A program made the position numbers and the translations under genes. Below are positions 35,358 through 60,818 of a stretch of DNA of 64,000 nucleotides, one piece after another (within the stretch, counting starts at the first letter, position 1; every line of letters starts with the position of its first letter). Source of the stretch: Bdellovibrionales bacterium (GTDB lineage: Bacteria; Bdellovibrionota; Bdellovibrionia; Bdellovibrionales; UBA1609); assembly GCA_965203095.1 (NCBI GenBank), contig OZ241877.1:512001-576000 (forward strand), read 5' to 3'. The notes beneath the pieces were generated by a model that saw nothing but the letters and a program-made list of their open reading frames with translations, did not search any database and was not told where the DNA came from.

Positions 35358-36623
35358 ATGCAAGTAATAGAGGAAAAGGGCTTAAAACGGAAGATAGAGT
35401 TTACTGTCCCTCTTGAAGAGGTCAATGCGGGTTTTTTAAAAAGCTATCAGCAAATACAAAAAACCGCTCGTATGCCTGGATTTCGACAAGGTAAAGTTCC
35501 CTTAAAAACCTTAGAGAGGAATTACAAAAATCAGGCGTATCAAAAAACTATAGAGAGCTTATTTCACTCATTTTATCCTATAGCTTTAAATCAGCTTTCC
35601 CTCCGGCCGGCCGGACCGCCACAACTCTTGAATGTGGATCTCCGGGAAGGGCAGGCTTGTAAATTTCTTTTGGAGATAGAGATTCACCCTCAAGTGGGCC
35701 TAAAAGGTTTAGAGAGTTTGCATTGTGCCCCTTTTAAGAGTCAAATTAAAGAGGAAGATGTGGATTCTGCTTTAAAGAGATTGAGGGAATCTTTTGCTGA
35801 GTGGGCCGACACTACTGGGGAGGGGCCACTAAAAAAAGCTGATTTTTGTGATATTCAGTTGGAGGCTTTTTCGTTATCGGGGGAGAGAAAGTTAGAGCCT
35901 ACTTCCCTTATGTTGGAGGCGGGAAAAAACTTCATAGCCCCCGGCTTTGATAAACATTTAATAGGGCTTAAACTGAAGGAAAAGCGAGAGTTTGATTTTT
36001 TATTTCCGGAAGATCATCCTCATACAAAAGTTGCGGGTCAAAAATTGCGGGTTTCTGCCTGTTTAATAGGGTTTAAAAATAAAGTTTTACCTAATTTAAA
36101 GTCTTTGGCTGAAAAATTGAGTTTAAAAACTGTGGAGGAATTGCGGGATAAGATTAAAAAAGACATACAAAAGCTTGAGAATCAAAAATATCAAGAAAAA
36201 CTGGAACAAGATATCCTCCAGCAGATAATAGAAAAAAACCCCTTAGATCTCCCTGAAGTTTTGATCCGGCAGGAAGTGCAAAGGCTTAAAGACATAGTGA
36301 AACAACAATGGGATCAAAAATCACCCGGCCAGTCATCCGCTTTTTTGAAAGATAAGGAACCGGAGTTTGAAAAATCAGCTAAAAAAAATCTTCATATAAG
36401 CTATCTTGTTCAACAGCTCATTCAGGATATGGAAATTAAAGTATCTGAAGAAGAGATTAAACAATCCCTAAAAAAAACCTTTCCGGAGACTCCATTAGAG
36501 AATGTGAAGGCTCAGCTAAAGCAGGAACAATCTTGGGATAGTTGGATCTTTAATCTCAAAAAGAAAAAGGCCTTAGGCCAGCTCATTCACCGGGCACAAA
36601 ACAAAACTTTAATAATACCCTAA
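35358..36623 (+). CDS. tig: Trigger factor
   Basis: PGFRQGKVP ribosome-binding signature; FKBP-like FIAPGFD..LIG..FPEDH. Confidence 0.92.
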   Translation: MQVIEEKGLKRKIEFTVPLEEVNAGFLKSYQQIQKTARMPGFRQGKVPLKTLERNYKNQAYQKTIESLFHSFYPIALNQLSLRPAGPPQLLNVDLREGQACKFLLEIEIHPQVGLKGLESLHCAPFKSQIKEEDVDSALKRLRESFAEWADTTGEGPLKKADFCDIQLEAFSLSGERKLEPTSLMLEAGKNFIAPGFDKHLIGLKLKEKREFDFLFPEDHPHTKVAGQKLRVSACLIGFKNKVLPNLKSLAEKLSLKTVEELRDKIKKDIQKLENQKYQEKLEQDILQQIIEKNPLDLPEVLIRQEVQRLKDIVKQQWDQKSPGQSSAFLKDKEPEFEKSAKKNLHISYLVQQLIQDMEIKVSEEEIKQSLKKTFPETPLENVKAQLKQEQSWDSWIFNLKKKKALGQLIHRAQNKTLIIP

Positions 36624-37115
36624 ACTTTTTAGAGTGAGCCAGCTCATCCAAGCCATAAAAAGTGTGACGGAAAAGGGAATACTGTGGAACTGGATCCCTT
36701 TGGTGGTTCGATTAGTGAATAAATAATATAAGTTGAGAAAAAACTTTTTAAGTTGCCCATCCAAAGTGATTTTAACCAATCCCAGGAGTAAAGCCCATGG
36801 TAAAGAGTAGATAAAAATACGGAGAAAATCCAACCAACTCAAAGTGAAAGCCAAAACAACTAAAAGCTTGAGGTCTCCTCCCCCAATGGCTCGAAGTAAA
36901 GCCAGAGGGACTGCCACAAGCAAGGCCAATCCTGCAGACAGGCCCCCATCTATTAGACCTTGAGATCCTTTGAGCACAAAAACCGCTAAAATAGCTATAA
37001 ATAACAGAACCAAAATGAGCTTGTTGTGAATTTTTCGGGAACGGAGATCATCAATGCTGGCAATAAATAAAATCAGGCCAGAGAGGAAAAATACCGGCTC
37101 TAAATTAAAGATCAT
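36609..37115 (-). CDS. A24 family prepilin peptidase (TadV/CpaA-like)
   Basis: DDLRSRKIHN and GGGDLKL aspartate motifs; adjacent to Flp pilins. Confidence 0.88.
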   Translation of the reverse strand: MIFNLEPVFFLSGLILFIASIDDLRSRKIHNKLILVLLFIAILAVFVLKGSQGLIDGGLSAGLALLVAVPLALLRAIGGGDLKLLVVLAFTLSWLDFLRIFIYSLPWALLLGLVKITLDGQLKKFFLNLYYLFTNRTTKGIQFHSIPFSVTLFMAWMSWLTLKSLGYY

Positions 37116-37700: not shown

Positions 37701-37901
37701 TTTACCTCCTTTTGTTAACCGATTGACTCTATTATTGATTCATTGAGGCCAAAAGTCAATATTTTTTGATATTAGGGGCTATAATTTGCATGAATACATT
37801 AGTCGCTTGTGAAAAAGCCCAGTGTTTATATAGTTCTCAGCTGGTTTTACTCAAAAAACAACTTTTTTTGACTGAGTTTTAGCCTTGTGCTATAATGGGT
37901 T

Positions 37902-38330: not shown

Positions 38331-38531
38331 CTGAGAGGCTGGGAAAAAATTCACGCAGCACTTTTCCACCATCTTTGGAGCGATGAGTCTGGCCAAGGAG
38401 CTATGGAGTATATCCTTATGCTCACAGTGGTTGCTGGTATCATTTTCATATTCAAAGGTAGAATTTCAGACATAGTAAATGAGCTTGTCGATAAATCAAA
38501 GGACAAAATGGGTAATGCTTTAGATCAATGA
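38331..38531 (+). CDS. Second Flp pilin cassette (not in ORF track; no canonical start for the leader)
   Basis: Hand translation ..LFHHLWSDESGQGAMEYILMLTVVAGIIFIFKGRISDIVNELVDKSKDKMGNALDQ*; in-frame TAG at 38316; only a CTG at 38331 could start the leader. Confidence 0.7.
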   Translation: MRGWEKIHAALFHHLWSDESGQGAMEYILMLTVVAGIIFIFKGRISDIVNELVDKSKDKMGNALDQ

Positions 38532-39022
38532 CCATAATTATAAAAACTAATGGGTTATTTAAAGTTTGATGGTAGGCACTGACTCTATAAACCGAACTCT
38601 CATAATAAGCTTGTAATGAGTAAAGGGAAATCTCAAATCATACTGAGTCGTCCGTGAAAAACTTTGCTAAAAAGTCCCCCAGACTTTTTAGCTCCCGTGC
38701 AAACGGGAATCCATACACCTTGTTTTGTAGGAAGAACCCCGTATTTCACTATGTCCAGCTTTCCTGGATTCCCGCTTAAGGCGGGAATGACTGGGATATT
38801 GCCTCACAGCTGAATAGAGCTATAAAACTTGTCAGGATAGTTATTGAGTTTGGACACTGTCTATAGCACCCCTAAGTTTGCCCTCTGTCTGTGTAGTGAG
38901 ATTTCCAACTGCCTCCAGTATTGGTTTTTTAAAAGCTATTACTATAGCCCCAACTACAACCAGCATAAGGATATACTCCATAGCTCCTTGGCCAGACTCA
39001 TCGCTCCAAAGATGGTGGAAAA
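38362..39022. repeat. Perfect 61-bp inverted repeat (38362-38422 / 38962-39022) shared by two Flp genes
   Basis: ttttccaccatctttggagcgatgagtctggccaaggagctatggagtatatccttatgct and its exact reverse complement. Confidence 0.92.
38672..38791. repeat. REP-like palindrome pair
   Basis: gctcccgtgcaaacgggaatcca and ctggattcccgcttaaggcgggaatgac. Confidence 0.8.
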
Positions 39023-39044
39023 ATTTTTTTATTGATTTTTTCAT
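38841..39044 (-). CDS. Flp family type IVb pilin
   Basis: Leader ending ESG then QGAMEY Flp motif and hydrophobic helix; AAGGAGG RBS. Confidence 0.88.
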   Translation of the reverse strand: MKKSIKKFFHHLWSDESGQGAMEYILMLVVVGAIVIAFKKPILEAVGNLTTQTEGKLRGAIDSVQTQ

Positions 39045-43085: not shown

Positions 43086-43162
<77 letters not shown>

Positions 43163-45622: not shown

Positions 45623-45772
45623 AACCTCAGCTCAAAAAAAACTAAATTGCACCCCCCTCCCTCTTGACTTGGCTTCATGTGGATATTTTGTATGTGAAAA
45701 CTTATATTCTTCTAAGTGGTATGATAAATTAAGCTCTGCAACTTTTAAACTTAACAAAAAGGAGATCAAACT

Positions 45773-45937
45773 ATGATTATAATTGAACAACTTTTTAATA
45801 AAAAAAGCAAAAAAAAGATTTTTCAGTCAGCCCAAAATGTCCAATTCGCTTATAAGAATTTTAAAACCAAAGCAAAGATGGAAGAGCTAACAGGGCTATT
45901 AAAAAAAAGATTCTTTGACATGGTTAGATACAGATAA
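45773..45937 (+). CDS. 54-aa ORF, probable N-terminal piece of the downstream recombinase
   Basis: AAAAGGAG RBS; MIIIEQLFNKKSKKKIFQSAQNVQFAYKNFKTKAKMEELTGLLKKRFFDMVRYR*; overlaps the recombinase frame after an A8 tract. Confidence 0.55.
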   Translation: MIIIEQLFNKKSKKKIFQSAQNVQFAYKNFKTKAKMEELTGLLKKRFFDMVRYR

Positions 45938-46913
45938 ATCGGAAATGTCTTTTTCTGATTGTTTTCAGCAATACCTGAAAGGAGGGATTCCCTCTCTAAA
46001 AAAATCTACCAGACAGGCTTACGAGACCCGCTGGAAATATTTTACAACAGGCCCCCTTCCGCATGTTAAAATGAAAGAGTTTAAGGCTCAAACTGTTTAT
46101 AATTGGATGAATTGGCTGAAAGCCCATCCGACAGCAAAAAACAAAAGCAGAAAGACATTTGCTCAAGAGTTAAAAACTCTTAAAATAATTTTGCATTGGC
46201 ATCGCAATTTTGTAGATGAGAATTTTAATGTTCCCATCACTAAAAAACACAAACAGCTTTGCTATTATAAAACGGTTCCACCAAAAAGGCCGGACTACTA
46301 TGCTAAGCCAGAGGAGCTGAGAGAATTTATCTGCTGGCTTAGGGATAATAGAAAAAATCCCATGTATTGGAGGTTGGCCTTGTTTATGGTCTTAACAGGG
46401 GCAAGGGTAGGCGAGGCTTGCGGGCTTTGTTGGAGTGCAGTGGATTTTAAAAGAGGCCATGCCAGAGTGATGAGACAAATGGCTTGGGAGCAAAAAAGCA
46501 AAAGGCCCTATTTAGAGGAAACAACAAAGACTTCCGCCTCTGCCCGTATTTTGTTATTGCCTGATGAGCTGTTGAGGCTTTTAAAGGCAATGAGGGCGGA
46601 AAGCTCGAATAAAACAGGTTTGCTCTTCACCGATCGAAGGGGCAAAGCTGTAAAATACAATGCCATTCAATCTTCTTTTAATGCGGGTTTTATGGCCTTA
46701 GGTTTAACTTGGCGATCGACTCATATTTTAAGGCATTCCTACGCCACAATCGCTTTAATAGCCACTAAAGATTTGTCTGCTGTTCAGGCAAGCCTTGGAC
46801 ATACTTCCAGCCGTATGACAGAAAGGTATGCTAAAGTCATAGCCTTACTTGACAGAAAAACAGCGGAAAAAACAGCCAAGGTTCTGGACATTTTTAGCAA
46901 ATTATCAAAGTGA
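45915..46913 (+). CDS. Tyrosine recombinase/integrase
   Basis: Intact catalytic set: TGARVGE (R), KT (K), HILRH (HxxR), LGH (H), RYA (Y). Confidence 0.92.
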   Translation: MTWLDTDKSEMSFSDCFQQYLKGGIPSLKKSTRQAYETRWKYFTTGPLPHVKMKEFKAQTVYNWMNWLKAHPTAKNKSRKTFAQELKTLKIILHWHRNFVDENFNVPITKKHKQLCYYKTVPPKRPDYYAKPEELREFICWLRDNRKNPMYWRLALFMVLTGARVGEACGLCWSAVDFKRGHARVMRQMAWEQKSKRPYLEETTKTSASARILLLPDELLRLLKAMRAESSNKTGLLFTDRRGKAVKYNAIQSSFNAGFMALGLTWRSTHILRHSYATIALIATKDLSAVQASLGHTSSRMTERYAKVIALLDRKTAEKTAKVLDIFSKLSK

Positions 46914-47179
46914 TGAACTTATACTGATCTTGTTTGAAAATTCCTGCTTTCTCTACTCTGTTTTGACCGGAAATCTCAAATGTAATCAGTATAATTTTTC
47001 CCAGGAACTCCGGACTTTCCGCCGACCTAATCCTTCCCCTTGGCATAGTCCTTTCTTTGAGAGTGAGAATCCTTAACTCCCTGCTCTCATAAAAACGAGA
47101 GGTCCTTTTGAAAGTGAATTTTAATAGATTTTTTAAAATGTGTGCGAAAAACTACCGCAATTCACTCAAAAAGTCTTCT

Positions 47180-47529
47180 AAATGGTGGATACTACCAAGA
47201 TTAACCTTAAATGCTCTGAAGTTCTATTATTGAGCTATTTTGTTGGAATTGTCAAAAAAATTTTTTAAAAATTTCTCAAGAAAAAGATTTTAAGGGAGGA
47301 TTCAGGTAAAAAAGCCTATAAATAAAGGCTTTTTGCCCACTTCCCGGCCTTCCCGACTTTTATCCTTATGAGACATTTATTCTACCTTTAGACCTAAAAA
47401 GAGGCTTAGCAGGCACTAAAAATCTTAAGGAAGGCTTTTTGGACTTAAACCCGCTCAATCTAAAAAAGCCTTTGTTTTCAAGGTTTTTGAGCCTTTCATT
47501 TTTAACAATCTTGGTAGGAAATACCATTT
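47180..47529. promoter_or_regulatory. Putative invertible promoter switch for the pilin gene
   Basis: Inverted repeats 47180-47202 / 47507-47529 (perfect 11-bp core CTACCAAGATT plus outer AAATGGT); internal TTGACA-N18-AATAAT on the minus strand at 47226-47255. Confidence 0.7.
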
Positions 47530-47590
47530 TCCGAAAAAGATTTGAGCTTAAAGGCTTTGGAAAAACTTAAAACACATAAGGAGATAAATT

Positions 47591-48256
47591 ATGGAAAACA
47601 TAAAAACTTTTTTTAAAAGGCTTTTCTCTGCCTTCACAAAAGAGAGAAAAAACACTTTAGGCTTTTCCCTTGTGGAGCTATTGGTAGTCGTGGCTATCAT
47701 TGGAATTTTAGCCGCCGTGGCTGTGCCAGCTTATAACAAATATCGTGCCAATGCCGCCCAGGGAGCAATCACAGGCTCACTTCAGGCAATGGGTAAAGAC
47801 TTTGTGAATTGTCTTGCGACAAACACATGGGCTAATTGTGACTCTTTAACAGAACTGGGGGGGACTTGCCCAAATTGCATGTCTGGCACAGACGGAACAG
47901 ATGATTTTTGCCTTGATACAGAAAAAGAAGTCGCTGGGACAACATATATGGGTTGCGTAAGTGTTTCTGGTTCTGGGTTGCCTGTTATAGTGGGGAACTG
48001 GCCAAGCCTTTGCTCTGGTATTACCGTGAGTTATGGTTGCACCACGGTAGGATCTTTGACTAATCCAACAAACACATGTGCTGATTTAAATTGTATGAAT
48101 ACAGCCACAGCTCCGGTAGGGGCGGCTTGCACGGCAGGGATAGTCGCCGGGGCAATGGCCATCCAACATAATTGCACGGATACCACGGACGCCAATGCTT
48201 TAACTAATTCAATGGCCGCGGGAAGTTGTGGCATGACGACAGGGGAATGCTCTTAA
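47591..48256 (+). CDS. Type IVa pilin-like protein, Cys-rich
   Basis: Class III signal G|FSLVELLVVVAIIGILAAVAVPAY; 14 Cys in the globular part; AAGGAG RBS. Confidence 0.9.
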   Translation: MENIKTFFKRLFSAFTKERKNTLGFSLVELLVVVAIIGILAAVAVPAYNKYRANAAQGAITGSLQAMGKDFVNCLATNTWANCDSLTELGGTCPNCMSGTDGTDDFCLDTEKEVAGTTYMGCVSVSGSGLPVIVGNWPSLCSGITVSYGCTTVGSLTNPTNTCADLNCMNTATAPVGAACTAGIVAGAMAIQHNCTDTTDANALTNSMAAGSCGMTTGECS

Positions 48257-48287
48257 GGAGTATATTGCTGATTTAAGTTTAACTATG

Positions 48288-48315
48288 AGGGGGAGTTTTA
48301 TACTCCCCTTTATTT
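48288..48315 (+). terminator. Intrinsic terminator after pilin
   Basis: aggggagt-tttat-actcccct followed by ttattt. Confidence 0.65.
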
Positions 48316-48332
48316 CCTAAAGGATAATAAAA

Positions 48333-48596
48333 ATGAGTTTAAAAGATATAGCTAAGAGAGCACAAAAAGCACAGAGAGATAAAGATAGAGAGAATTTATC
48401 AAAAGCTATTTTAGATTGTTATAAATACCTTAATAAAGAATATCCAGGGGAATACTTTGGAGCAGTTAAAATTGATAATAAACTTGGGATTAGAAAAGAA
48501 AGGGGGCATAGTTCTGGCACACATAGCATTATAAAAAGATTAAAAGAGGATGGTTTTTTAGAGCAAAAGCGGGGGTTTAGGATAAAAAATGACTGA
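48333..48596 (+). CDS. Small basic hypothetical protein (possible winged helix), paralogue A
   Basis: GEYFGAVKIDNKL...L.EDGFLEQKRGFRIK shared pattern with next ORF. Confidence 0.7.
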   Translation: MSLKDIAKRAQKAQRDKDRENLSKAILDCYKYLNKEYPGEYFGAVKIDNKLGIRKERGHSSGTHSIIKRLKEDGFLEQKRGFRIKND

Positions 48597-48813
48597 AAAT
48601 AAAACAAAAAAAAGAGAGATGATAAAGGACTTTTATAAGGATTTTCATAAAAAGCATCTGGGGAAATACATTGGAGCATATAAAATTGATGACAGGCTTA
48701 GTTTTGATCCGGGTCATAACAATTTTCCCACACATGACATTTTATTGGAATTGGTAAAAGAGGGATATTTGAAGCAAAACAAAGGTTCAGGGTTTAGGTT
48801 AAAAAAGAAATGA
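48589..48813 (+). CDS. Small basic hypothetical protein, paralogue B
   Basis: GKYIGAYKIDDRL...LVKEGYLKQNKGSGFRLK; overlaps upstream stop. Confidence 0.7.
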   Translation: MTENKTKKREMIKDFYKDFHKKHLGKYIGAYKIDDRLSFDPGHNNFPTHDILLELVKEGYLKQNKGSGFRLKKK

Positions 48814-48852
48814 CTGAAAAACAAAAAATAGCTGGTGTGATTTTTGGCAAGG

Positions 48853-49002
48853 TTCGCGGGAATGACTGGGTTCACGGAAAAGACAAAGTTGGAATGGATT
48901 CCCGTTTTCACGGGAGCCCAAAAGTCCGGGGGACTTTTGGGCAAATTCACGAGAATGACTTGGTTCACGAGAGCTAAAAAGTCCGGGAGACTTTTAGGTA
49001 AA
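48853..49002. repeat. Cluster of REP-like fragments
   Basis: gcgggaatgac, ggattcccgttttcacggga, cacgagaatgac and two aaaagtccgg..gactttt hairpins. Confidence 0.75.
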
Positions 49003-49055
49003 TTCTTTGGACAACAGAGGCAAACTTTTTCACAGGCAGGCAAATAGGTTAAAAG

Positions 49056-49493
49056 ATGACTGAAAAACAAAAAATAGCTGGTGCGATATTTGGAATTGCC
49101 ATAATTGCCTCTGTGGGCTTTGGCTGGAAACACTTTTTAAGTGCTAATGCATGCGATCACTATGGCAATGAGATTAAACGGCTTTTAGACGATCAGGACA
49201 ATCTTTTATTTACTTATGGTTTTTTTGCGGAACACACTTTAACAGAGGATAGACAAAAAGACTTCAAAAGATTGATTGAAGTAAAAGAGCCACTTGTCCG
49301 GGTCACAGTGGAGCACTTTTCAAAAACCTGCCGGTCCTCTCTTAGGAAAAGTGAGCTTATCGCTTTCCTTAAAACTTATGAGATTTATCTTGTGACTAAA
49401 CAAGCTTTCTTTAAACAAAGCCAGCGGTCGGGCTTTGATTGGATAAGAGATACCTTTCCCTTTGATCCTAAAATCTACAAAAACATAGATTAA
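49056..49493 (+). CDS. Hypothetical membrane-anchored protein
   Basis: N-terminal hydrophobic helix, 145 aa. Confidence 0.7.
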   Translation: MTEKQKIAGAIFGIAIIASVGFGWKHFLSANACDHYGNEIKRLLDDQDNLLFTYGFFAEHTLTEDRQKDFKRLIEVKEPLVRVTVEHFSKTCRSSLRKSELIAFLKTYEIYLVTKQAFFKQSQRSGFDWIRDTFPFDPKIYKNID

Positions 49494-49540
49494 CTTCATG
49501 AAACTTTTAGTGATTATGAACTCAATTAAATTTTAATTTT

Positions 49541-50494
49541 CTATTTTTGTAGTTGAGTAGGAGGTTTCACAAGAACACCTTGAACCTTTGCCCATGTCTT
49601 ATTCGCAGATCGTATCATTTTAACTCCTGTTGTATTCTCAAAAAACAATGTTATCAGATGATATGCTGTTAATACAGATTCTTGTAATTCACTATCATCT
49701 TCCAGAGCTTTCACCTTAAAATCATATTCACTCAATTTATTTTTTATTTGTGTAAAACCAATTGGACGACCATGGTTCAAATGTTTCACATTTATAAAAA
49801 AATCAGCGACTTGTTGAGCTTTTTTCTCATCTTTTAACATATATTTTGTTAACCATTCTTGAACCATTATTTTAGAGTAATTTAATGATTTTTTAGCTTC
49901 TTCAAGCAGACCTAAACCTAAGGATGATAAAATCGGTATCCATATTTGCATATTATTTGGATTTTGCTCAAAATCTTTCTTAGCTGTTTCAAACTGACTT
50001 ACAATAGAATGAGCTGATATTTGACGATTTTCTGAAAGAACAAACTGAGGATCAATAGGCCCCAAAAAAGAATGTTTGCCCATTATAATTTGATCTGATC
50101 CCAGAGCTATCATTGTTCCTGCTGACATAGCATAGGTAGGCACAATGACTTCTATATAGTGAAATTTTTCTCTTAAATATTTTACAATAGATTCCGTAGC
50201 GGTTGGAAGACCTCCTGGTGTGTGCAAAATCAAGGTTAATCCTTTAGAACAATCTAATCCCCGTATAATACTCATAAAACCATTTATGTCCTCTTTATTG
50301 ATAAGAGTAAGTGTAGGAATATTCCTTGGAGCAATTTTTTGCAAAAAAGCTGATGAGTATACAATAACAGCCCTGTTATTACAGAGCTTTGAAATTTGAT
50401 TTATATAATTTTTAAATTTAGACTCAAACCAGCTCTGTTTAGAGTGTTGATTAACAGGTGTAAACTCATTCAATAATTCTTCCCAAGATGGCAT
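49541..50494 (-). CDS. SDH/ClpP-like (S49-related) serine protease
   Basis: LHTPGG, AMSAGTMIAL, LGPIDPQ, HGRPI motifs. Confidence 0.85.
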   Translation of the reverse strand: MPSWEELLNEFTPVNQHSKQSWFESKFKNYINQISKLCNNRAVIVYSSAFLQKIAPRNIPTLTLINKEDINGFMSIIRGLDCSKGLTLILHTPGGLPTATESIVKYLREKFHYIEVIVPTYAMSAGTMIALGSDQIIMGKHSFLGPIDPQFVLSENRQISAHSIVSQFETAKKDFEQNPNNMQIWIPILSSLGLGLLEEAKKSLNYSKIMVQEWLTKYMLKDEKKAQQVADFFINVKHLNHGRPIGFTQIKNKLSEYDFKVKALEDDSELQESVLTAYHLITLFFENTTGVKMIRSANKTWAKVQGVLVKPPTQLQK

Positions 50495-50497
50495 AAA

Positions 50498-50677
50498 TCA
50501 GTAGTCGGTCAAGATTTGTCTTGTTGGAATATTTTTAGAGAGTTGTTGAGTTAATTCTGTTAAATTAGATATTTTTGTTGTTTCAATATATTTTATATAT
50601 TTTTTTTCTTCAGATTTATAAAATTCTTTCCAATCTGAGATTTTTTTTGAAGATTTTTTTTCTTTATTTCTTTCCAT
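50498..50677 (-). CDS. 59-aa hypothetical protein upstream of the SDH protease
   Basis: Hand translation MERNKEKKSSKKISDWKEFYKSEEKKYIKYIETTKISNLTELTQQLSKNIPTRQILTDY*; stop is 3 nt before the protease ATG. Confidence 0.5.
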   Translation of the reverse strand: MERNKEKKSSKKISDWKEFYKSEEKKYIKYIETTKISNLTELTQQLSKNIPTRQILTDY

Positions 50678-50916
50678 AGAATGACTTAACTATAATTTTA
50701 TAGCTTTTTTTAGATAATTAGTCAACTCTTTTTAAGAAAATAGCCTAAAATCCAACAAAATCACGAACTACATCCTTTTTTTGAGGACTTGTGACTCGTA
50801 AGCCTTTCAGAAAAAATCAGATTGAAAACCCCGTCTTTAGCACAGAAAAACAGGCGAGCTTTGTTTTTTCCCTTAAAAAGCTAAAGGATTTGACGCATTG
50901 CTCCGATAAATGGAGT

Positions 50917-53900
50917 ATGAAATCAGACTTCAAAAGTTTTCTTCAAATCATTCGTAAAAAAGCCAAAAATGAAAGGGAAAAAGGAGCTTTTTTTGAAAGA
51001 GCCATAAGGGATTTTCTACGAGAATCCCCTGAATATTCTTTTGAAAATGTATGGCTATGGCCTAACTGGCCAGACTTAAAAAAACACAGTTTTTCAAAAA
51101 AAGACTTAGGCATTGATCTTGTAGCTCGTGAAAAAGAAACCGGAACATTTTGGGCCATCCAATGCAAATGCTTTGATGAAAACCACCAAGTGAATAAAGC
51201 AGATATAGACAGTTTTTTCGCTCATTCAGGGAAAAATCCCTTTAAAGTTCGTCTTATTGTCACAACTACAAATAATTGGGGGGCTAATGCTGAAGAGTCT
51301 TTACGAAACCAGACAAAGGAATGCAAAGTTTTAGATTTGCATGGTTTGCAAACAGCTAATTTTGAATGGAGTTTTCAAAAAGTAAAACGAAAAACAGAAC
51401 AAAAATATTTAAGAGATCATCAAAAAGAGGCCGTCCGCAAATCAGCTGAGCATTTTAAAAAAGAAAAAAGAGGAAAGCTCATAATGGCCTGTGGGACGGG
51501 CAAGACTTTTGCTTCTCTCCGGGTTGTAGAAAGGATCACTCCAAAAAACGCAAATGTTTTATTTCTTGCTCCTTCCATTTCTCTTATATCTCAAACCTTA
51601 AGAGAATACGCTTGGCAGAGGAAATCAGCTCAAAGATACCTTGCCGTTTGTTCCGATACAAAAGCCGGAAAAGATACAGACGGCTATGATGTAAATGATT
51701 TGCAAATATCCCCAACCACTGATCCGAAAAAAATTGCTAAGAGGCTGAAGATCAAATCGAGACAAAGAACTATTGTTTTTTCCACCTACCAATCTCTTAA
51801 ACAAATAAAAAAAGCTCAAAAACTTGGGGCACCGGTTTTTGATCTTGTTGTTTGTGACGAAGCCCACAGGACAACTGGAGTTGAAGCCGGGGAAGAAAAA
51901 AACGGGAAGAACACAGGCAATTATTTTACCAGAATAAATGATGAAGATTATTTGAAAGCCAAAAAGCGACTTTATATGACCGCCACACCTAAAATTTATA
52001 GTGAAAGAATCAAAAGCAAGGCCAAAAAACATGATGTAGAGATTCACTCTATGGATGATGAAGCTGTTTTTGGAAAGGAGATTTACAGATTGGATTTTTC
52101 CTCCGCTATTGAGAAAAAACTGTTGGCCGATTACAAAGTGATCATTTTATCCATTGACGAACAATATATGAGCGACAATATTCAGGAAATACTAAAAGGC
52201 ACTGAGCTTAACTTAGATGATGCCTCCCGTTTGGTGGGTTGCTACAAAGCCTTGCGGGATCAAGGGGATAAAAAACAGGGGTTAAAGTTAGGCCGGGCTG
52301 TAGGCTTTTTGAACACAATCAAAGCGAGTAAAGATGTCAAACAGGAATTTCAAAAAGTTGTGAAAGCCTTAGATGAATATAAAAATGATGGTTTTACTTG
52401 TGAGACAGAGCATATTGACGGAACAGACAGCTCTATTGTTAGAAACAAAAAATTAGACTGGCTAAAAGAAGATGCTGGCAAAACAGAAAGAAAAGAGAAG
52501 ATATGCCGGATTTTATTCAATTCCAAATGTCTTACAGAGGGGGTGGATGTTCCCAGTCTTGATGCTGTGATGTTTTTGCATGCAAGAAAATCCCAAGTGG
52601 ATGTCGTGCAGGCAGTGGGCCGTATAATGAGAAAGTTGGAAGGCAAACAATATGGCTATGTGATTTTGCCAGTAGTGATTCCTACAGGGAAATCCCCGGA
52701 ACAAGCTTTAAATGATAATGAAACTTATAAAGTAGTTTGGCAGGTTTTAAATGCTTTAAGGTCTCACGATTCAAAATTTAATGCCTTGATAAATAACTTG
52801 GAGTTGAATGAAAACAAGCCAGATAAAATTAAAGTTATAGGCATTGGTTATGGAAGTGAGAAGGAAAGAAAAGAAGTTGAGGAGAAGACAAATCCTCAAA
52901 TCCAACTCAACCTCCAATACAGTATTGAGGAGATAGAGGATAAAATTTACGCCAAAATTGTTGAAAAATGCGGAGACAGAGTCTATGAAGAAAAATGGAC
53001 TAAGGAGATTGAAAAGGCTTGTAAGACCATCTCCGTCCGGATAAAAAGCCTTTTAAAGACAAAGCCTCAAATCAATAAGGAATTTCAAACTTACTATAAA
53101 GGGCTTAAGTCCTGTATCAATGAGGACATTAAGGAGGAGCAGGCTGTCTCTATGATTTCAGAGCATCTGATTACTCGTCCCGCTTTTGATAAGATTTTTG
53201 AGAATTACAAGTTTTCTGAAAACAATCCTGTTTCTAAAACCATGAAAAAAGTTTTGTCTCGTTTGGATGAATATGGCTTTAGCAATGAGTTAAAAGACCT
53301 TGAAAAGTTTTATCAAGGGATAAGTGGCCGGATAGAGGGAATTGACAACTCCGCCTCCCGACAAAAATTCATTAAAGAGCTTTATGAAAATTTTATAAAA
53401 ACTGCTTTTCCTAAAACAGCTGAAAAATTAGGCGTGGCTTATACCCCGGTGGAGATCGTGGATTTTATATTAAGGTCTGCTGATGAAATTTTAAAAGATG
53501 AGTTCGGTAAAAAATTAACTAATAAGGGAGTGCATGTCATAGATCCTTTTGTGGGGACGGGGACTTTCCTCAATAGGTTAATTCAAATGAACCCGGTTAT
53601 AGAAAAAAAAGATCTCCCCCGAAAGTTCAAACATGAACTTCATGCCAATGATATTTTGCTCCTGCCTTATTATGTGGCCTCTATTAACATTGAGGAGGCT
53701 TATCATTCTCGAATAGGAGGGAATCAATACAGGCCCTTTCCAAGGATAACATTGTCAGACATTTTTAACCGTAAGGAACGAGATAAACAACTTTCTCTTT
53801 CTCCTTATTTTCAGGAAAACAAAAAGAGAATAAAACAACAGCAAGAAGTGGATCTTCAGGTCATTATAGGGAATCCTCCATATTCCTCCGGCCAAAGGAA

Positions 53901-55710
53901 CGAAAATGACGCCAATAAAAACACAGTTTACCCAAAACTCCATAAAAGGATTGAGGATACCTATGTTAAAGAGTCATCAGCTCAGCTAAATACAGCCCTT
54001 TATGATTCCTATATCAAAGCCATTCGCTGGGCCACAGATGAGATTCAGGATAAAGGAGGTATTATTGGTTTTGTTCATAATGCCTCTCTTGTAAGCCAAA
54101 GGAGCACTGCTGGACTCAGGAGATCCCTTATAAAAGAGTTTGACTCCATTTACTGCTTTAACTTAAGAGGCAACCAAAGAACAAAAGGGGAGCTTTCAAA
54201 AAAAGAAGGAGGCAAAGTTTTTGGAGGTAGTTCCCGAACTCCTATAGCCATCACTTTCCTTATAAAAAATCCAAAGAAACGGAGAGAAAAAGCCACAATC
54301 AAATATCTTGATATTGGCGACTACCTCAGCCGTGAGGACAAGTTAGAAAAAGTTAAGAGCTTTGGTTGTATTAAAGGCATAGGGAAGGAATGGAAAACCA
54401 TAACACCGGACAAATATGGGGACTGGATCAACCAGCGGGATGAATCCTTTTATCAATTTATGCCTATTGGGGATAAAAAGTCCGGCAATCAAAATGCTAT
54501 TTTTAGTTTGTATAGCTGTGGAGTGGCCACCAGTAGAGATACTTGGGTTTATAACTTCAGTAAAGATCAAGTCCAAAAGAATATGAAAAAAATGATTCAA
54601 TTTTATAATCAGGAATTAGCACGCTTAAAGGATAAAACACTGGACAAAAAAACTATTGATAAATTTATCAATCGGGATGATAAAAAAATAAAATGGTCTT
54701 ATAGGATTAAAGAAAAATTTTGTAGAGAAAAACGAGCTATATTTGATCAAAAATTACTTAGATGTTCCAGCTATAGACCATTTATGAAATCATTAGTTTA
54801 TTTTGATCGAGATTTCAATGAGAGACAATCTCAATTACCAAAAATTTTCCCAAAAGAGACAACAAAAAATAAAATGATCTGTATAAGTGGGGTTGGAGCG
54901 AATAAATTTTCAGTTTTAATAACAGATGTTGTGCCCTGTGGAGATTATTTGAATAAAACCCAATGCTTCCCTCTCTATCGTTTTGATAATGATTTTGACA
55001 CTTCTCAAAAAAGCCTTCTGAACCAGAGCAAGCCCTCCTACAGCATTACCGACTCTGCCCTTAATCGTTTTAAAAATCATTACAAAAGAGATAAAGTTTT
55101 GGGAAAATCCTCAAACACCATTACCAAAGAGAATATTTTTTATTATATTTATGGCCTCCTCCATTCAGAGGACTACCGGCAGAAATACCAGTCCAACCTA
55201 AGTAAAGATCTCCCTCGTATTCCATTAGTTCCGGAGTTTCAAGAGTTTTCCCACATTGGCCGAAAGCTTGCCGATCTGCACTTAAACTATGAACACCAAT
55301 CACCTCCTAAAGGTGTCAAAATCTTAAATTCTGGCCAAGAGATAAATATGTTTCAATTAAAAAACTCCTCAGAGGACTTGAAAGTTAAAAAAATGAAGAT
55401 GAACAAAAAAGACAAATCTAAAATCCAATTTAACGATCGCATCACTATTTCAAACATCCCGCCAGAGGCTTGGGAATACAAAATCAACGGCTATTCTGCT
55501 CCCAAATGGATTGTAGAAAGATACCAATACAAGAAGGACAAAAAAACAGACTTAGTAAATGACCCCAATAGCTATTCAGATGACCCGGCTTATATCTTGA
55601 AACTGCTCCTCAGTATAATAACAGTTTCCTTAAAAACCCGGGAGCTTGTTCAAAGCCTCCCTTCCATTGATTTTGACAGCCTCATCTCCTCCATAAATAA
55701 AGCTGGATAA
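50917..55710 (+). CDS. Type ISP restriction-modification enzyme (LlaBIII/LlaGI-like)
   Basis: Mrr-like GIDLV..IQCK; MACGTGKT, DEAH, QAVGRIMR helicase; DPFVGTGTF and NPPY MTase; probable ATG at 50917. Confidence 0.92.
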   Translation: MKSDFKSFLQIIRKKAKNEREKGAFFERAIRDFLRESPEYSFENVWLWPNWPDLKKHSFSKKDLGIDLVAREKETGTFWAIQCKCFDENHQVNKADIDSFFAHSGKNPFKVRLIVTTTNNWGANAEESLRNQTKECKVLDLHGLQTANFEWSFQKVKRKTEQKYLRDHQKEAVRKSAEHFKKEKRGKLIMACGTGKTFASLRVVERITPKNANVLFLAPSISLISQTLREYAWQRKSAQRYLAVCSDTKAGKDTDGYDVNDLQISPTTDPKKIAKRLKIKSRQRTIVFSTYQSLKQIKKAQKLGAPVFDLVVCDEAHRTTGVEAGEEKNGKNTGNYFTRINDEDYLKAKKRLYMTATPKIYSERIKSKAKKHDVEIHSMDDEAVFGKEIYRLDFSSAIEKKLLADYKVIILSIDEQYMSDNIQEILKGTELNLDDASRLVGCYKALRDQGDKKQGLKLGRAVGFLNTIKASKDVKQEFQKVVKALDEYKNDGFTCETEHIDGTDSSIVRNKKLDWLKEDAGKTERKEKICRILFNSKCLTEGVDVPSLDAVMFLHARKSQVDVVQAVGRIMRKLEGKQYGYVILPVVIPTGKSPEQALNDNETYKVVWQVLNALRSHDSKFNALINNLELNENKPDKIKVIGIGYGSEKERKEVEEKTNPQIQLNLQYSIEEIEDKIYAKIVEKCGDRVYEEKWTKEIEKACKTISVRIKSLLKTKPQINKEFQTYYKGLKSCINEDIKEEQAVSMISEHLITRPAFDKIFENYKFSENNPVSKTMKKVLSRLDEYGFSNELKDLEKFYQGISGRIEGIDNSASRQKFIKELYENFIKTAFPKTAEKLGVAYTPVEIVDFILRSADEILKDEFGKKLTNKGVHVIDPFVGTGTFLNRLIQMNPVIEKKDLPRKFKHELHANDILLLPYYVASINIEEAYHSRIGGNQYRPFPRITLSDIFNRKERDKQLSLSPYFQENKKRIKQQQEVDLQVIIGNPPYSSGQRNENDANKNTVYPKLHKRIEDTYVKESSAQLNTALYDSYIKAIRWATDEIQDKGGIIGFVHNASLVSQRSTAGLRRSLIKEFDSIYCFNLRGNQRTKGELSKKEGGKVFGGSSRTPIAITFLIKNPKKRREKATIKYLDIGDYLSREDKLEKVKSFGCIKGIGKEWKTITPDKYGDWINQRDESFYQFMPIGDKKSGNQNAIFSLYSCGVATSRDTWVYNFSKDQVQKNMKKMIQFYNQELARLKDKTLDKKTIDKFINRDDKKIKWSYRIKEKFCREKRAIFDQKLLRCSSYRPFMKSLVYFDRDFNERQSQLPKIFPKETTKNKMICISGVGANKFSVLITDVVPCGDYLNKTQCFPLYRFDNDFDTSQKSLLNQSKPSYSITDSALNRFKNHYKRDKVLGKSSNTITKENIFYYIYGLLHSEDYRQKYQSNLSKDLPRIPLVPEFQEFSHIGRKLADLHLNYEHQSPPKGVKILNSGQEINMFQLKNSSEDLKVKKMKMNKKDKSKIQFNDRITISNIPPEAWEYKINGYSAPKWIVERYQYKKDKKTDLVNDPNSYSDDPAYILKLLLSIITVSLKTRELVQSLPSIDFDSLISSINKAG

Positions 55711-55774
55711 ACCAAAATTTTTGGAAAATAATAGTTTTTGCCAAAAGAATGATATGATTTTCAATTCCCATTTT

Positions 55775-58345
55775 TTAATCATTATGTGATATGGAGTTCT
55801 GCCTATTTTTAAATTCTTCTATCCAGTCTTTAAGTTTTTTAAAATCTTTTTCCAGTTCTTCAGGAGATGGCATTTTATGAGATGTTTCAGCAGAGGGAAA
55901 GTGCATGAATTTTGAATATTTGGTCATTAAATCATCCAGCAGATCGCAATCCTTTTGATTGATTTTAGAAAGTTTGGAGATTTTTTTTGTGTGAATATCT
56001 TTTCTATGTCTTTTTATTATGTCTAAAAGCAAAACATTTTCGATTGTTTTTTCAATAACAATTCTAAAATCACTGCATAAAGTTTTTGCTTTTTCATTAT
56101 AAGAGCTATAACCTTCCTCTTTAAAAATTTTCTTGACTGAGAATAGTTTTTCAATTAAAGAATTTAAAGCATTTTTTGGTTTTTGAGCAAAGAGGGGAGT
56201 ATTCCTTGGCTCACCAGATCCCCAAGGTTCTGTTTCAATATATAAGGGATCTAATTTTATGTTTTCTTTGTCACAAGAATCCTCAATCAGTCCAAGAAAA
56301 GAGAGCCTGTGTGTAAAAATGATCACTTGCCTTTCTTTAGAAAGCTCTACGAGGCGATTAGCGACTGCCTCTTCAAAATCTTGATCCAATGAAGATATTG
56401 GATCATCAAAAACAAATGGATATGAGCTACTTTTTCCTTTTAGATCAGCAAGAAAAGCTGATAGAGCGACAATACGATTTTCTCCTTCACTAAGAACAGA
56501 TTCTGTTTTTACAGAATTTGAATTTAATCCTTCTAAACGGATTTGATGCAAGGATTTCCCCTTTGTGACTCTTGATTTGACAAGCTTAACTTTTATTTTA
56601 TCGGCTTTCAGTTTCTTTAATTCAGCATTGAATCTGTTAATAAAATCTTGAGTAATCAATTTTTCTGAAAGTTTGCTTTTTTGTTTTGAAAGTGCTGTTG
56701 TATCTGTCAATTTTTTAGCTGATTCAAGTAATTTAATACTTTTCAATCTATTTATCTCTTTTTTTATGGATTTTCTATTTTGAGAAAGCCATTGTTTTGC
56801 CTGTAAATCTTGTTTTTTAGAGATCAATTCTTTTCTATCAATGTTGTGGGCAATTTCATCATATTTTTCTGCCTCTTTTTCATTCTTCTCAAGTGTTGCT
56901 TCTACTCCAACTTTCCAGTTTTCAATAGAAGGAAGAGGAGATAATGAGTTATGACTATTGAGAATGATAAGTTTTTCTTTTCTTTTATTTAATTCAGTAT
57001 AAAAATTATCTAATTCTTCTCTGCCTGATTGTAAACCAGCCGCATCCATTTTAGTTGTAAGAATACTTTTATTTGGTATTTGTGGAAGGTTTTTTATAGA
57101 TTCATCTAATAATTCTTTTATATTTGTTAACTCCTGTTGAGATTTTTCCTTTACAAATTCTTCAAAAGATAGAAGTCTGCTTTGAGCTTTATCATCTAAT
57201 TTTTGTTGGCATAGGACACAATGAACATTGTTAGCCGGGAAAGGTTGTCCTTTATAAGCTTCTTGCTCTGAATATTCTCTTGCATGTTTCCATAACCGTT
57301 TCCATACTTCGCTACCGACTCCTGAAAGAATCGATTTTTCAGATATTTGTTTTGTTGCAACTTCAGAAGTCTTTTTTGCTTCAGCATATTTTTCTTTAAA
57401 GCTGTTTATTGTGTCACATTTTTCGTCTGAAAAACTATCTCTAAGATCGTTTGATTCACTTATCAACTTTTTTATGTAGTTATTTTGTTTTCTGATGGTT
57501 TCGGCTTTTTTTGCAGGATCCGGCTGGGCAAATCTTTCTTGAAGTTTGGTTAATTCTTCTTGATTTTTATTTGTCCAAAGACAATAACTATTCAGTTCCT
57601 GTTCTGTTAAATTTTCTGATAATTCTTTATACCATTTTGCACTTTTTGTGGTATTGTATTCAGATGGGCATGCAGGAAGCTTGGAAGGGTGCTTTTCTAT
57701 TTCAGTTTGTATTTTTGATGAAATGTTATCACAAACGCCAACAAGTTTAGAAAAAAATAATAATATTTCTGGCTCATAAGCTGTTTCGTTTTCACTTGTG
57801 ACATAAGCTTTTCCGCATTCAGAATCAAAAATATTCACACAATTTAAATCATCTATAATTCCAAAGGCTGGATTCCATTCTATTGTTTGTGGACTATTGT
57901 CTTTTAGATATTCAATACTGCAACTCTGTTTGGGCTGATTGTTCTTGAATACATTTGTTAAAAGAGGGGATGGGGGTTTTGTTCCACAAACTTTTTTTAA
58001 AATTCTTACATAGCCTGATTTTCCAGATCTGTTTGAGCCATATATAACTGTTAGATTTCCTTCTCCAAATTTCAATGGGTTTTTAGGGGATAAGTTATTG
58101 ATCCCTTTAATATGTCCAATAGATTTTATTTTTATTTTATTGCCAGACTTTTTGTCATTCAATAGCTGATCCATAGATATAGTGCCACTTAATGTATCTG
58201 GTTGCCCTTTAGCTGTATTTAAACAGTTCTTATAGAGGCATTCATAATCTTCATCATGGAGCGAACCCTTTTCTATGAGACGCACAGTCGCTTCTTGAAG
58301 CCAAATATGTTTTTTTCTAAACCATTCTTCTAATTCTTGTCTCAT
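55775..58345 (-). CDS. Rad50/RloC-like ABC ATPase with zinc hook
   Basis: Walker A GSNRSGKS, central CVLC hook in coiled coil, LSEGE signature, FDDPISSLD Walker B, IFTH. Confidence 0.8.
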   Translation of the reverse strand: MRQELEEWFRKKHIWLQEATVRLIEKGSLHDEDYECLYKNCLNTAKGQPDTLSGTISMDQLLNDKKSGNKIKIKSIGHIKGINNLSPKNPLKFGEGNLTVIYGSNRSGKSGYVRILKKVCGTKPPSPLLTNVFKNNQPKQSCSIEYLKDNSPQTIEWNPAFGIIDDLNCVNIFDSECGKAYVTSENETAYEPEILLFFSKLVGVCDNISSKIQTEIEKHPSKLPACPSEYNTTKSAKWYKELSENLTEQELNSYCLWTNKNQEELTKLQERFAQPDPAKKAETIRKQNNYIKKLISESNDLRDSFSDEKCDTINSFKEKYAEAKKTSEVATKQISEKSILSGVGSEVWKRLWKHAREYSEQEAYKGQPFPANNVHCVLCQQKLDDKAQSRLLSFEEFVKEKSQQELTNIKELLDESIKNLPQIPNKSILTTKMDAAGLQSGREELDNFYTELNKRKEKLIILNSHNSLSPLPSIENWKVGVEATLEKNEKEAEKYDEIAHNIDRKELISKKQDLQAKQWLSQNRKSIKKEINRLKSIKLLESAKKLTDTTALSKQKSKLSEKLITQDFINRFNAELKKLKADKIKVKLVKSRVTKGKSLHQIRLEGLNSNSVKTESVLSEGENRIVALSAFLADLKGKSSSYPFVFDDPISSLDQDFEEAVANRLVELSKERQVIIFTHRLSFLGLIEDSCDKENIKLDPLYIETEPWGSGEPRNTPLFAQKPKNALNSLIEKLFSVKKIFKEEGYSSYNEKAKTLCSDFRIVIEKTIENVLLLDIIKRHRKDIHTKKISKLSKINQKDCDLLDDLMTKYSKFMHFPSAETSHKMPSPEELEKDFKKLKDWIEEFKNRQNSISHND

Positions 58346-58664
58346 AATTTATTTTATCTTATAGTTGGTTCAATTTCTTGTTTTTTCCACCAGGTGTTTT
58401 ATCTCTAAATTTTATTCCTTGGATTTTTTATGAAATCCAGAAATCTAAATATGAGGTCATTTGCCGAAAAAGCAAGGTCTAATACCGATTTTTTTGAAAA
58501 TAAAATCTCACTGCGGAGAACAGAAACTTAAAGAAAGTTTATGTTAAAAAAGCTCCTCAAGCTTTTTTATATTAAAAATCTTGAGAAAAAGGCTCTTAAA
58601 TACCTATAAACTTTGTTTATTTATCCGAGAACATACTGATATTTTTAACAAGGTTCATGGCATT

Positions 58665-59642
58665 TTAAGAACCGTTTTTTAGTTTTTTTATTGCTTTTTC
58701 AGAAAGCCCTGTCACTTTGGAAATAAAAGAAATATTTGCTTTCTCTTTCAGCATATTTAAAACAAGCTCTCTGTCTCTTGCTTGTCGGCCTTCCCAACGA
58801 CCCTTCTCTTTAATAATTTCCCAAACATCTTGCATAAGCCCTCCTTGTTTTAATATCCCTTCGGATATAAGCAGTTTTTCCGCCCTTTCCCAAACTTTTA
58901 AATCCAATCCCGTATTGTCTCTTAAATACTCCAATATCCTTAACTCTACAGTCTTTCTCTCCTTCCCCTTCAAATCCTTCAATATCTCCTCAAACTCAGC
59001 ATAAACATCTCTTACCTTTAATGGAGTTATTTTCTTCTTTAAACTCCATACATCAGACAATAATTTTATTACACTATAACCCTTAAATTCCCCAGCCTTA
59101 AGGGCTTTTTGAATTTTCGGGTCTCGCGTGTTTATTATCTTCGGTTCGTAGTTTAACATATTTTTTCGGGATTCCATAGGAATTTTTTTAAAAAAAGAAC
59201 CAAAATCCTCTTCTTGGAGAGATTTTTTCCATTTAAGAGGCTGTTCCCCGTGATAAAACAGCGAAGAGATTATAGGCTGAGGATAGCCTTTTTGTTGGAT
59301 GCTATGTTTTCTACCCAATACTTGATAGTCTAAAAGCTGGCTAAACAGGTTTTTATCATAATGGCTTTTGTGTTCTAAGAGAATAAAGATTTGGACTCTG
59401 TTTTTTGGATAATTTTTAAAAGGGAGGGAGAAGATAAGATCTGCTCTTTTGGCCTCAAAGGTGTCTTTTTCTATTCTCAACTGGTTTAAATTGTAGGCTC
59501 TAAGTTCTTTTTTTGAGAAAATAAGTTTCAATAGTCCTTTAGCAAGCTCTATATTAGAGTAAAACAGTTTGAAGAAGTTATCGTGACTGAGTTTTGGTTT
59601 CTTGCTTTGGACTTGAGATTTGTTCTTTTGGTATTTTTCCAT
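58665..59642 (-). CDS. Rpn family recombination-promoting nuclease (Transposase_31)
   Basis: HDNFFK, RADLIFSL, LLEHKS, LFYHG, C-terminal ISKVTGLS. Confidence 0.88.
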   Translation of the reverse strand: MEKYQKNKSQVQSKKPKLSHDNFFKLFYSNIELAKGLLKLIFSKKELRAYNLNQLRIEKDTFEAKRADLIFSLPFKNYPKNRVQIFILLEHKSHYDKNLFSQLLDYQVLGRKHSIQQKGYPQPIISSLFYHGEQPLKWKKSLQEEDFGSFFKKIPMESRKNMLNYEPKIINTRDPKIQKALKAGEFKGYSVIKLLSDVWSLKKKITPLKVRDVYAEFEEILKDLKGKERKTVELRILEYLRDNTGLDLKVWERAEKLLISEGILKQGGLMQDVWEIIKEKGRWEGRQARDRELVLNMLKEKANISFISKVTGLSEKAIKKLKNGS

Positions 59643-59759
59643 AAAAAATCCTTTATAGTTGGTTTTTTAAAAGCCTCACAAGCTTTTAAGCTTAAAACAG
59701 TTTAAATGAAAATACAAGCTGTTTTTTTGACTGCCTTTTTGAGAGCCAATTATCAAAGG

Positions 59760-59925
59760 GAAAGTGAATTTTTAGTAGATTTTTTTTAAATGTGTTGCGA
59801 AAAACTGCCACAATCCATTCAAAGCTCTTTTAAACTGAAGGGCTGAAAACCCTTAAAACAAAAGCTTTTTTAGATTGAACGGGTTTTAAGTCCAAAGCTT
59901 TCCTTAAGATTTTTAGTGCTTGCCG
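59760..59925. repeat. Degenerate copy of the switch junction in the opposite orientation
   Basis: 59760-59834 is a direct copy of 47110-47182; 59836-59919 is an inverted copy of 47414-47498. Confidence 0.8.
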
Positions 59926-59992
59926 AGTGGACTGAGGGAAAAAAGTGGACTCTTTTTAAAATGTGATTTAACACTAACTTTAAAAAGGAGGA

Positions 59993-60352: not shown

Positions 60353-60401
60353 AAATTGTTTGTTTTTTAAAAACTTGTAAATAGATTTTTTTTGAAGATT
60401 A

Positions 60402-60578: not shown

Positions 60579-60629
60579 ATTTTGTAAATTTTTCACAGTG
60601 AGAAAGCCTGTTTCCCCAGTGGCTACAGT

Positions 60630-60815: not shown

Positions 60816-60818
60816 TTT

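Follow-up and report, generated by a model that had tools for sequence, protein, structure and literature searches.

The window analysed here is a stretch of 64,000 nucleotides from the genome of a Bdellovibrionales bacterium (assembly GCA_965203095.1, contig OZ241877.1, positions 512,001 to 576,000 of the forward strand), and this work concerns the region in it that lies between a gene for a tyrosine recombinase and a gene for a type IV pilin. All positions given are those of the window. The recombinase gene, which encodes the core-binding and catalytic domains, is found at 45915–46913 on the plus strand and yields a protein of 332 amino acids (aa) from a TTG at 45915 or of 322 aa from an ATG at 45945. 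It is preceded by the decayed remnant of an N-terminal (arm-type) integrase domain (45773–45937, plus strand), a 54-codon open reading frame (ORF) that has a good ribosome-binding site (RBS), is out of frame with the remainder and begins 150 nt after the end of leuS. The pilin gene (47591–48256, plus strand) encodes a Cys-rich protein of 221 aa; its ORF is intact and its RBS is AAGGAG. From the recombinase to the pilin the order is 266 nt, an inverted repeat (IR), a 304-nt promoter segment, a second IR and 61 nt, with the genes all on the same strand. The left repeat (IRL, 47180–47202) has the arm AAATGGTGGATACTACCAAGATT, the right repeat (IRR, 47507–47529) has the arm AATCTTGGTAGGAAATACCATTT, and the segment between them (47203–47506) carries a sigma-70-like promoter (47226–47255, minus strand) that is now aimed away from the pilin. 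Also within the segment are a palindromic hairpin of an A-run and a T-run (47307–47335), terminator-like both ways, which would stand upstream of the promoter if the segment were flipped, and, at the right inner end, a module that we call Y (47400–47506, plus strand). The left flank of the switch is formed by another module, L (47101–47179, plus strand). The initial annotation, made from the sequence alone, had proposed that this arrangement is an invertible promoter switch captured in its OFF orientation.

The repeats are as they had been described: 19 of the 23 positions (83%) are complementary around a perfect 11-bp core, and 304 nt are enclosed. The core, CTACCAAGATT, occurs at just two sites in the 1.8-Mb genome, one per strand, both in these arms. 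Comparable IR pairs, defined by an exact 11-mer, at least 19/23 complementary positions and a distance of 100–800 nt, number 55 genome-wide, which amounts to ~0.02 expected per 677 bp; among 200 shuffles of 46914–47590 that preserved its dinucleotides, 5 produced a window of 23 nt in which 19 or more bases were complementary. The rarity of the pair is moderate, and the repeat alone is only suggestive; it is its position that carries weight. All four mismatches fall in one central 5-nt patch and the 18 flanking positions are perfect, a clustering for which our own post hoc count gives a chance of ~1%. The region has 35% G+C and contains 31 IR pairs. Searches with the exact pattern AAATGGT-N5-CTACCAAGATT returned 22 metagenome and 16 genome loci; these were single copies in unrelated organisms, with no similarity beyond the pattern, and were dismissed as chance hits.

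The promoter inside the segment was likewise found where it had been placed, with TTGACA (47255–47250), a spacing of 18 nt and AATAAT (47231–47226) on the minus strand, an A/T-rich tract upstream, and the –10 hexamer 24 nt from the left repeat. It scores 11/12 and is the top promoter-like site of a 3-kb scan. The exact form TTGACA-N15-20-AATAAT occurs nowhere else in the window, and 17 of 100 shuffled sequences have at least one; promoter-like sites are not enriched regionally (9 versus 6.3 expected). If the segment were flipped, the –35 hexamer would fall 132–137 nt before the pilin ATG. As assembled, no plus-strand promoter-like site ahead of the pilin scores above 8/12, and a scan for the sigma-54 consensus found none on the plus strand of 47380–47590 (20 versus 26.5 expected in the window as a whole). 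Rfam models at their gathering thresholds match only two tRNAs in the whole window, and at E ≤ 1 the matches in 46850–47650 and 59600–60050 reach 17–30 bits, against cut-offs of 50–100. It had also been noted that the same variant of the –10 element serves another gene of the window, and it does recur: CAATAATAG is present at 37729–37737 (minus strand), preceded at 17 nt by TTGACT and closely followed by an RBS and ATG. Four copies of CAATAATAG are found in the window (at 33927, 37729, 39555 and 47224) versus 0.81 expected, and this sequence may be a favoured extended –10 element of the organism. On the main contig, C1 (1.78 Mb), it has 37 copies, 3 of which have TTGAC at –35 distance.

Two other places in the same genome bear directly on the orientation of the segment. 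A whole-genome search with the intergenic DNA identified a locus (locus B, 59760–59925, plus strand) in which a copy of L (47110–47170, 86% identical) runs straight into the reverse complement of Y (47409–47505, 87%), without the ~28 nt that hold the IR. It is flanked by a YhgA-like (Transposase_31) gene on the minus strand and by a gene for a 119-aa protein on the plus strand. When 47203–47506 is flipped in silico, the switch (locus A) becomes collinear with locus B from 47109 to ~47400, and the alignment score is 145, versus 80 as assembled; the only large gap, ~28 nt, is exactly the hybrid repeat, and the homology breaks no more than 3 nt from both repeat boundaries. The second place is upstream of the only full-length paralog of the pilin in the genome (G000:C1:1703514, 49% identity), 1.1 Mb away. 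There, a hairpin with A/T flanks is followed by a block, TTTTTAAAAAA..TTGACAATT, at –142, with TTGACA at this position, and then by a leader that has an IRR-like sequence in the same place as IRR. Flipped locus A reproduces this series of elements, order and spacing included: a 25-nt block around TTGACAATT is common to both, the distance from hairpin to promoter is 65 nt in flipped locus A and 64 nt in the paralog, and that from the promoter block to the ATG is ~128 nt and 133 nt, respectively. Global alignment of the invertible part with the region upstream of the paralog scores 21 flipped and 13 as assembled; shuffled sequences score 7.4 (standard deviation 3.0), and 0 of 500 reach 21. Because locus B and the region upstream of the paralogous pilin are both collinear with the flipped form only, it is close to certain, judging from these comparisons, that the segment has been inverted at these repeats at least once. 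The flipped form would then be the ancestral promoter-to-pilin arrangement and the assembled state an OFF state, so that the orientation predicted in the initial annotation is borne out by two paralogous sequences. The upstream regions of 18 pilin homologs in relatives showed no conserved promoter position.

The L and Y modules (~175 nt) exist in two copies that are 86–87% identical: the paralog of L lies at 59760–59835 (86% over 64 nt) and that of Y, inverted, at 59829–59925 (87% over 98 nt). Neither module has an Rfam match, a tRNA remnant or a clear promoter. In the other region (G000:C1, ~1703060–1704170), a paralog of the YhgA-like gene at 58665–59642 stands immediately before the paralogous pilin; thus, pilin and YhgA-like genes stand together twice in this genome.

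The downstream gene encodes a type IV pilin. The protein matches the N_methyl model PF07963 with 31.7 bits (threshold 21.2) and TIGR02532 with 26.3 bits (threshold 16.3), and its cleavage motif, LG/FSLVELLVVVAIIG (the slash marks the cleavage site), has the form G/FxxxE and is followed by a hydrophobic helix. The family to which it belongs is multi-copy in two genera. No partial copy of the pilin C-terminus was found near the locus, the genome having the gene itself and the one full-length paralog. We also considered a shufflon, which would have inverted repeats inside the pilin coding sequence and alternative promoterless C-terminal cassettes, and rejected it for this locus.

The recombinase matches PF00589 with 78.2 bits (threshold 27.1), and its catalytic R, HxxR and Y motifs align to those of the integrase 3nkh (GARVGE, HILRHS, GHT, RY). 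Three PF00589 genes and one serine recombinase gene are present in the genome; the PF00589 gene in the window ends 266 nt from IRL, and the other two are taken, by inference, to be a XerC/D pair. The initial annotation had likened the locus to fimS with its FimB/FimE recombinases. The likeness holds for the layout and fails for family membership: the match to the FimB/FimE-type invertase model NF007371 is 17.2 bits versus a cut-off of 222 (E = 0.0028), is confined to residues 229–307, and comes from a protein of 322–332 aa versus ~200 aa. The closest full-length homologs, 387–389 aa long, are encoded by two other genomes, G001 (70–71% identity) and G011 (65%), and relatives are numerous in this bacterial family, with up to 23 matches per genome; the database homologs come from sources named "Bdellovibrionales bacterium", "Bdellovibrionaceae" and "Oligoflexia". 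The G001 and G011 homologs are preceded by a small helix-turn-helix (HTH) gene, which in G001 matches Pfam HTH_17 and is taken to be an excisionase gene. The G001 integrase gene is ~100 nt from a tRNA gene, and an excisionase-like gene is present at the G011 C26 locus. Next to the recombinase of the window there is no excisionase gene or tRNA, the nearest tRNA (Met, 43086–43162) being beyond leuS. By these comparisons the recombinase evidently derives from a family of tRNA-island integrases.

Residues 1–39 of the G001 island integrase match the frame that opens at 45773 (14/39), and residues 53–383 match the next frame from 45906; the two frames join at a run of eight A at 45901–45908, where the frame-shift may be a homopolymer assembly error. 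Over the ~50 N-terminal residues, motifs conserved in 12 homologs are lost and there is a 4-residue gap, and identity to the homologs is 22–37%. The remainder is 50–71% identical to them with no gaps, including 70% to the G001 integrase over 331 aa. The ratio of N-terminal identity to that of the rest is 0.40–0.66, versus a mean of 0.88 (minimum 0.65) in 66 pairs of homologs. In the protein database the closest ortholog is P0025 (86%), whose annotated start is the same internal Met; it is encoded on a contig of 2.16 Mb outside the 109 family genomes compared here. Such a pattern fits, and does not prove, an enzyme that has dispensed with its arm-binding domain and would still be under selection. 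Truncated forms recur in this integrase family, about 10 of the 120 homologs listed being 320–332 aa long, and one homolog, P0053, has an unrelated N-terminus.

Of 14 integrase-homolog loci, a single one, L029 on contig C29 of G011, has a pilin close by. There, a full-length integrase homolog (50% identity) lies within a 2365-nt segment bounded by a 195-nt IR, which is 75% identical overall with 35 nt perfect and bears no resemblance to the repeats of the window. This IR links a complete pilin gene with a C-terminal pilin cassette that has no promoter (45% identical at the protein level), in what appears to be a shufflon-like pilin design; the arrangement ties the integrase family to pilin inversion elsewhere. 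Both loci have an integrase of the same family beside a type IV pilin with inverted repeats. However, in L029 the repeats are long and lie in the pilin coding sequence, the recombinase is full length and inside the segment, and the outcome would be a swap of C-terminal domains, whereas in the window it would be ON/OFF control of a promoter. At this locus (G011:C29, 4000–7607), the repeat also encloses the 5' end of the pilin gene and a small gene pair that, by eye, resembles HicAB. One island-integrase family may have been recruited repeatedly to vary type IV pili in small-genome Bdellovibrionales-like bacteria, here as a promoter-flipping invertase without an arm-binding domain and in a sister genus as a full-length copy shuffling pilin C-termini; we consider this broader idea somewhat unlikely.

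In the mechanism that we propose, the 350-bp element (IRL, 304 nt and IRR) would be an invertible promoter cassette for the pilin gene. The promoter of the assembled, OFF form would fire leftward, antisense, towards the recombinase gene. Flipped to ON, the order would be L, IR, reverse-complemented Y, hairpin, the promoter with its upstream (UP) tract (UP-TTGACA-18-AATAAT), IR, the 61-nt leader and the pilin, and the promoter would fire across IRR into the pilin gene. The strands would be exchanged within the perfect 11-bp core, just as happens in fimS within its 9-bp repeats. The probable catalyst is the adjacent tyrosine recombinase, an island integrase that would have lost its arm-binding domain and kept its core-binding and catalytic domains. 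That this recombinase flips the segment, that flipping is reversible and ongoing, and that the promoter drives the pilin are steps that we infer.

An active, fimS-like inverton driven by the recombinase is the reading that we favour, tentatively and with somewhat less than even confidence, because of the adjacent recombinase that is conserved without its arm domain, the intact pilin ORF, the consensus promoter, the clustered mismatches and the precedent in G011. A number of observations weigh against ongoing switching. Nine public sequencing runs, all of them as contigs and with no RNA run on record among them, contain part of the stretch, and four of these were compared over 46300–48300: X1, X2 and X3 represent one sample, possibly the source, and X4 a second sample of the same study. 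The other five, X5–X9, contain only small shares of it. X1, X2 and X3 each have one 678-nt contig (46967–47644) with 0 differences and a depth of 7–24 that crosses both repeats in the reference orientation, and no strand-changing joints are listed for any of the four runs. The reversible, ongoing phase variation of the original proposal has thus found no support so far in these contigs. Contig orientation is weak evidence in this matter: if a second orientation were present in a sizeable minority, the contigs would be expected to break at the repeats, but an assembler drops rare variants, and a rare flipped form would go unseen. The comparison with related genomes suggested in the initial annotation was made and brought no counterpart of the switch: DNA of 47090–47600 has only AT-rich matches of 22–60 nt in 108 other genomes of the family. 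The scan for the repeat pattern described above gave only its 38 single chance hits in metagenome and genome collections, and the IR motif, with up to 5 mismatches, was not found near any of the 14 integrase-homolog loci. The repeat centres differ over 5–7 nt, which a canonical crossover region would not tolerate. Translation signals are poor at both 45915 and 45945, and a frame-shift follows the native start; the nearest full-length relatives are ordinary island integrases beside an excisionase-like HTH_17 gene, one of them beside a tRNA. Finally, locus B has no IR and the leader of the paralogous pilin has an IRR-like sequence, so that IRL may be derived and not an old recombination site.

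Some of these points also feed the main rival, a fossil inversion, which we rate as doubtful in itself and yet nearly as likely as the active switch. Under this explanation, the segment would have flipped once via the short repeats, or a staggered-break-type event would have copied the leader in inverted form and thereby given rise to IRL; the result would have become fixed, silencing one pilin of a multi-copy family, and the integrase would be decaying with no role. The direct junction of L and inverted Y in locus B, together with the leader of the paralog, would make IRR ancestral and IRL derived, and a single orientation in the contigs of all four runs is what a fixed inversion would leave. 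A frame-shifted integrase that lacks an excisionase gene and a tRNA, from a family with recurrent truncated forms, agrees with this too, as do the comparable IR pairs elsewhere in the genome and the presence of other pilin genes. However, 4 of the 23 repeat positions differ and yet the pilin ORF and its RBS, the perfect –35 and the good –10 have all stayed intact, the mismatches are clustered and not scattered, and the catalytic part of the recombinase is undecayed, unlike its N-terminus.

Two further explanations would do without a switch. According to one, which we regard as clearly improbable, L, the repeats and Y are attachment-site (att) leftovers of two related, decayed islands after leuS, and the similarity of loci A and B is that of related att arms. 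The region from leuS to 62.5 kb does vary among congeners, with homologs of the genes at 62.5–63.7 kb standing ~10 kb from leuS in G007 and a homolog of the YhgA-like gene ~10 kb from leuS in G002; its cargo is of the defence type (a Type ISP restriction-modification enzyme, an SDH protease and a YhgA-like nuclease), and in G001 the att site, the 3' end of the tRNA, is ~100 nt past the integrase stop, so that an att remnant would be expected downstream of the integrase in the window. Against such remnants, no tRNA fragment longer than 14 nt is present in 46900–47620 or 59640–60000: when the genome's 38 tRNAs were compared with the switch and with locus B, the longest match had 14 nt with 1 mismatch (E = 0.056). 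Similarity to L and Y in the 14 integrase-homolog loci amounts only to short, weak matches. Island ends would also leave unexplained why it is precisely at the repeats that the orientation of Y against L is reversed and why the flipped form matches the promoter region of the paralogous pilin. The other explanation has the slightest probability of all: a chance repeat next to a chance promoter-like site, with no inversion ever. It can draw on the shuffled sequences that equalled or bettered the repeats, on the AT-richness of the region and its many IR pairs, and on promoter-like sites being no more frequent than expected. Nevertheless, the breakpoints of locus B on both repeat boundaries, combined with the collinearity of the paralog, make coincidence very unlikely, and we consider it close to refuted. 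Matches of 7–8 nt to tRNA ends of the "...CCACCA" type inside the repeats were not significant and were set aside.

Several details of the runs and of the surrounding sequence are recorded here. Immediately 3' of the recombinase stop is a palindromic REP/MITE-like element of ~80 nt (46919–46999), with ~40 further copies in the genome at 78–99% identity; it is outside the switch proper, and the contigs of all runs end inside it. The ends of the X1–X3 contigs thus fall in this multi-copy element and in the conserved pilin N-terminus, not in the repeats. X4 has only an inner piece of 254 nt (47234–47487), without flanks, with 0 differences and at depth 10; its breaks are 31 and 19 nt inside the repeats. 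Low-depth same-strand "skips" in X2 and X3 (depth ~2, sides of 21–56 nt) were attributed to repeats or to other organisms. Right after the pilin, two neighbouring small paralogous genes (48333–48813; 87 and 74 aa) have no Pfam match. The content of the region after leuS (45623–62500) differs among congeners and includes the genes of defence type, namely an SDH-type ClpP-like protease (49541–50494) and the Type ISP restriction-modification enzyme (50791–55710, 1639 aa), as well as an 856-aa protein without a Pfam match (55775–58345). Elsewhere in the window, a 79-nt inverted repeat (38362–38440 and 38944–39022, 90%) covers with its right arm the start of a small gene (38841–39044, minus strand), whose product has a G-x4-EY motif that we take to be typical of Flp-type pilins; a second copy of the gene, convergent with the first, may begin in the left arm. 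A membrane protein (36609–37115) resembles a prepilin peptidase and is a putative member of that group.

In the fimS switch of E. coli type 1 fimbriae, FimB and FimE act on a segment of ~300 bp, flanked by short inverted repeats, in which the promoter of the fibre-subunit gene lies. The window has the same plan: a recombinase upstream on the same strand, an IR-bounded promoter segment of ~300 bp, and an OFF form that reads back towards the recombinase. The differences are in the parts. FimB and FimE are ~200 aa long, whereas the recombinase here descends from an integrase, has a core-binding domain and is 322–332 aa long; the repeats have 23-nt arms that share an 11-bp core; and the gene under control would encode a type IV pilin, while fimS controls a chaperone-usher fimbria and switching in the window is a prediction. 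By membership the locus is not of the Fim type; if real, it would be an inverton that places a type IV pilin under a recombinase of integrase descent. The type IV pilin inversions known to us act on coding sequence. One is the classical shufflon of R64, where Rci inverts DNA within the pilin coding sequence; the other is the Piv system, for which inversion of pilin DNA in Moraxella bovis and M. lacunata was reportedly described by Marrs et al. in 1988 (cited in PMC11868660). In Moraxella, as proposed here, DNA inversion determines the choice of type IV pilin or whether any is produced. However, Piv belongs to a different recombinase class and inverts pilin coding segments, and there is no promoter-only cassette there.

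Invertons in general are described as widespread in a survey and a review (PMC11602134; PMC11868660), and the PhaseFinder and DeepInverton surveys rest on read evidence or on a trained classifier (PMC11602134, PMC11892184). The locus resembles the elements in these accounts in having an IR-flanked promoter beside a site-specific recombinase and a gene for a surface structure, and differs from them in that only one orientation is seen here. The main text of PMC11602134 has 0 occurrences of the term "Bdellovibrio". No report of phase variation by DNA inversion in Bdellovibrio-like bacteria turned up in our literature search, and the supplements of the surveys could list cases.

What the locus means for the organism depends on which explanation applies. 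If the inversion is a fossil, it would reflect ordinary turnover of a pilin family in a variable region with defence islands. If the switch is active, one of several type IV pilins would be made in only part of the population, a form of bet-hedging relevant to contact with prey or host and to escape from phages in an uncultured Bdellovibrionales-like organism. A recombinase whose arm domain has decayed and whose catalytic part is conserved would illustrate how the integrase of a mobile element becomes a host regulator, with the domestication of integrase to invertase caught at an intermediate stage. The pilus itself would then be phase-variable, in a lineage whose pili are considered to serve both in attachment to prey and in adsorption of phages.

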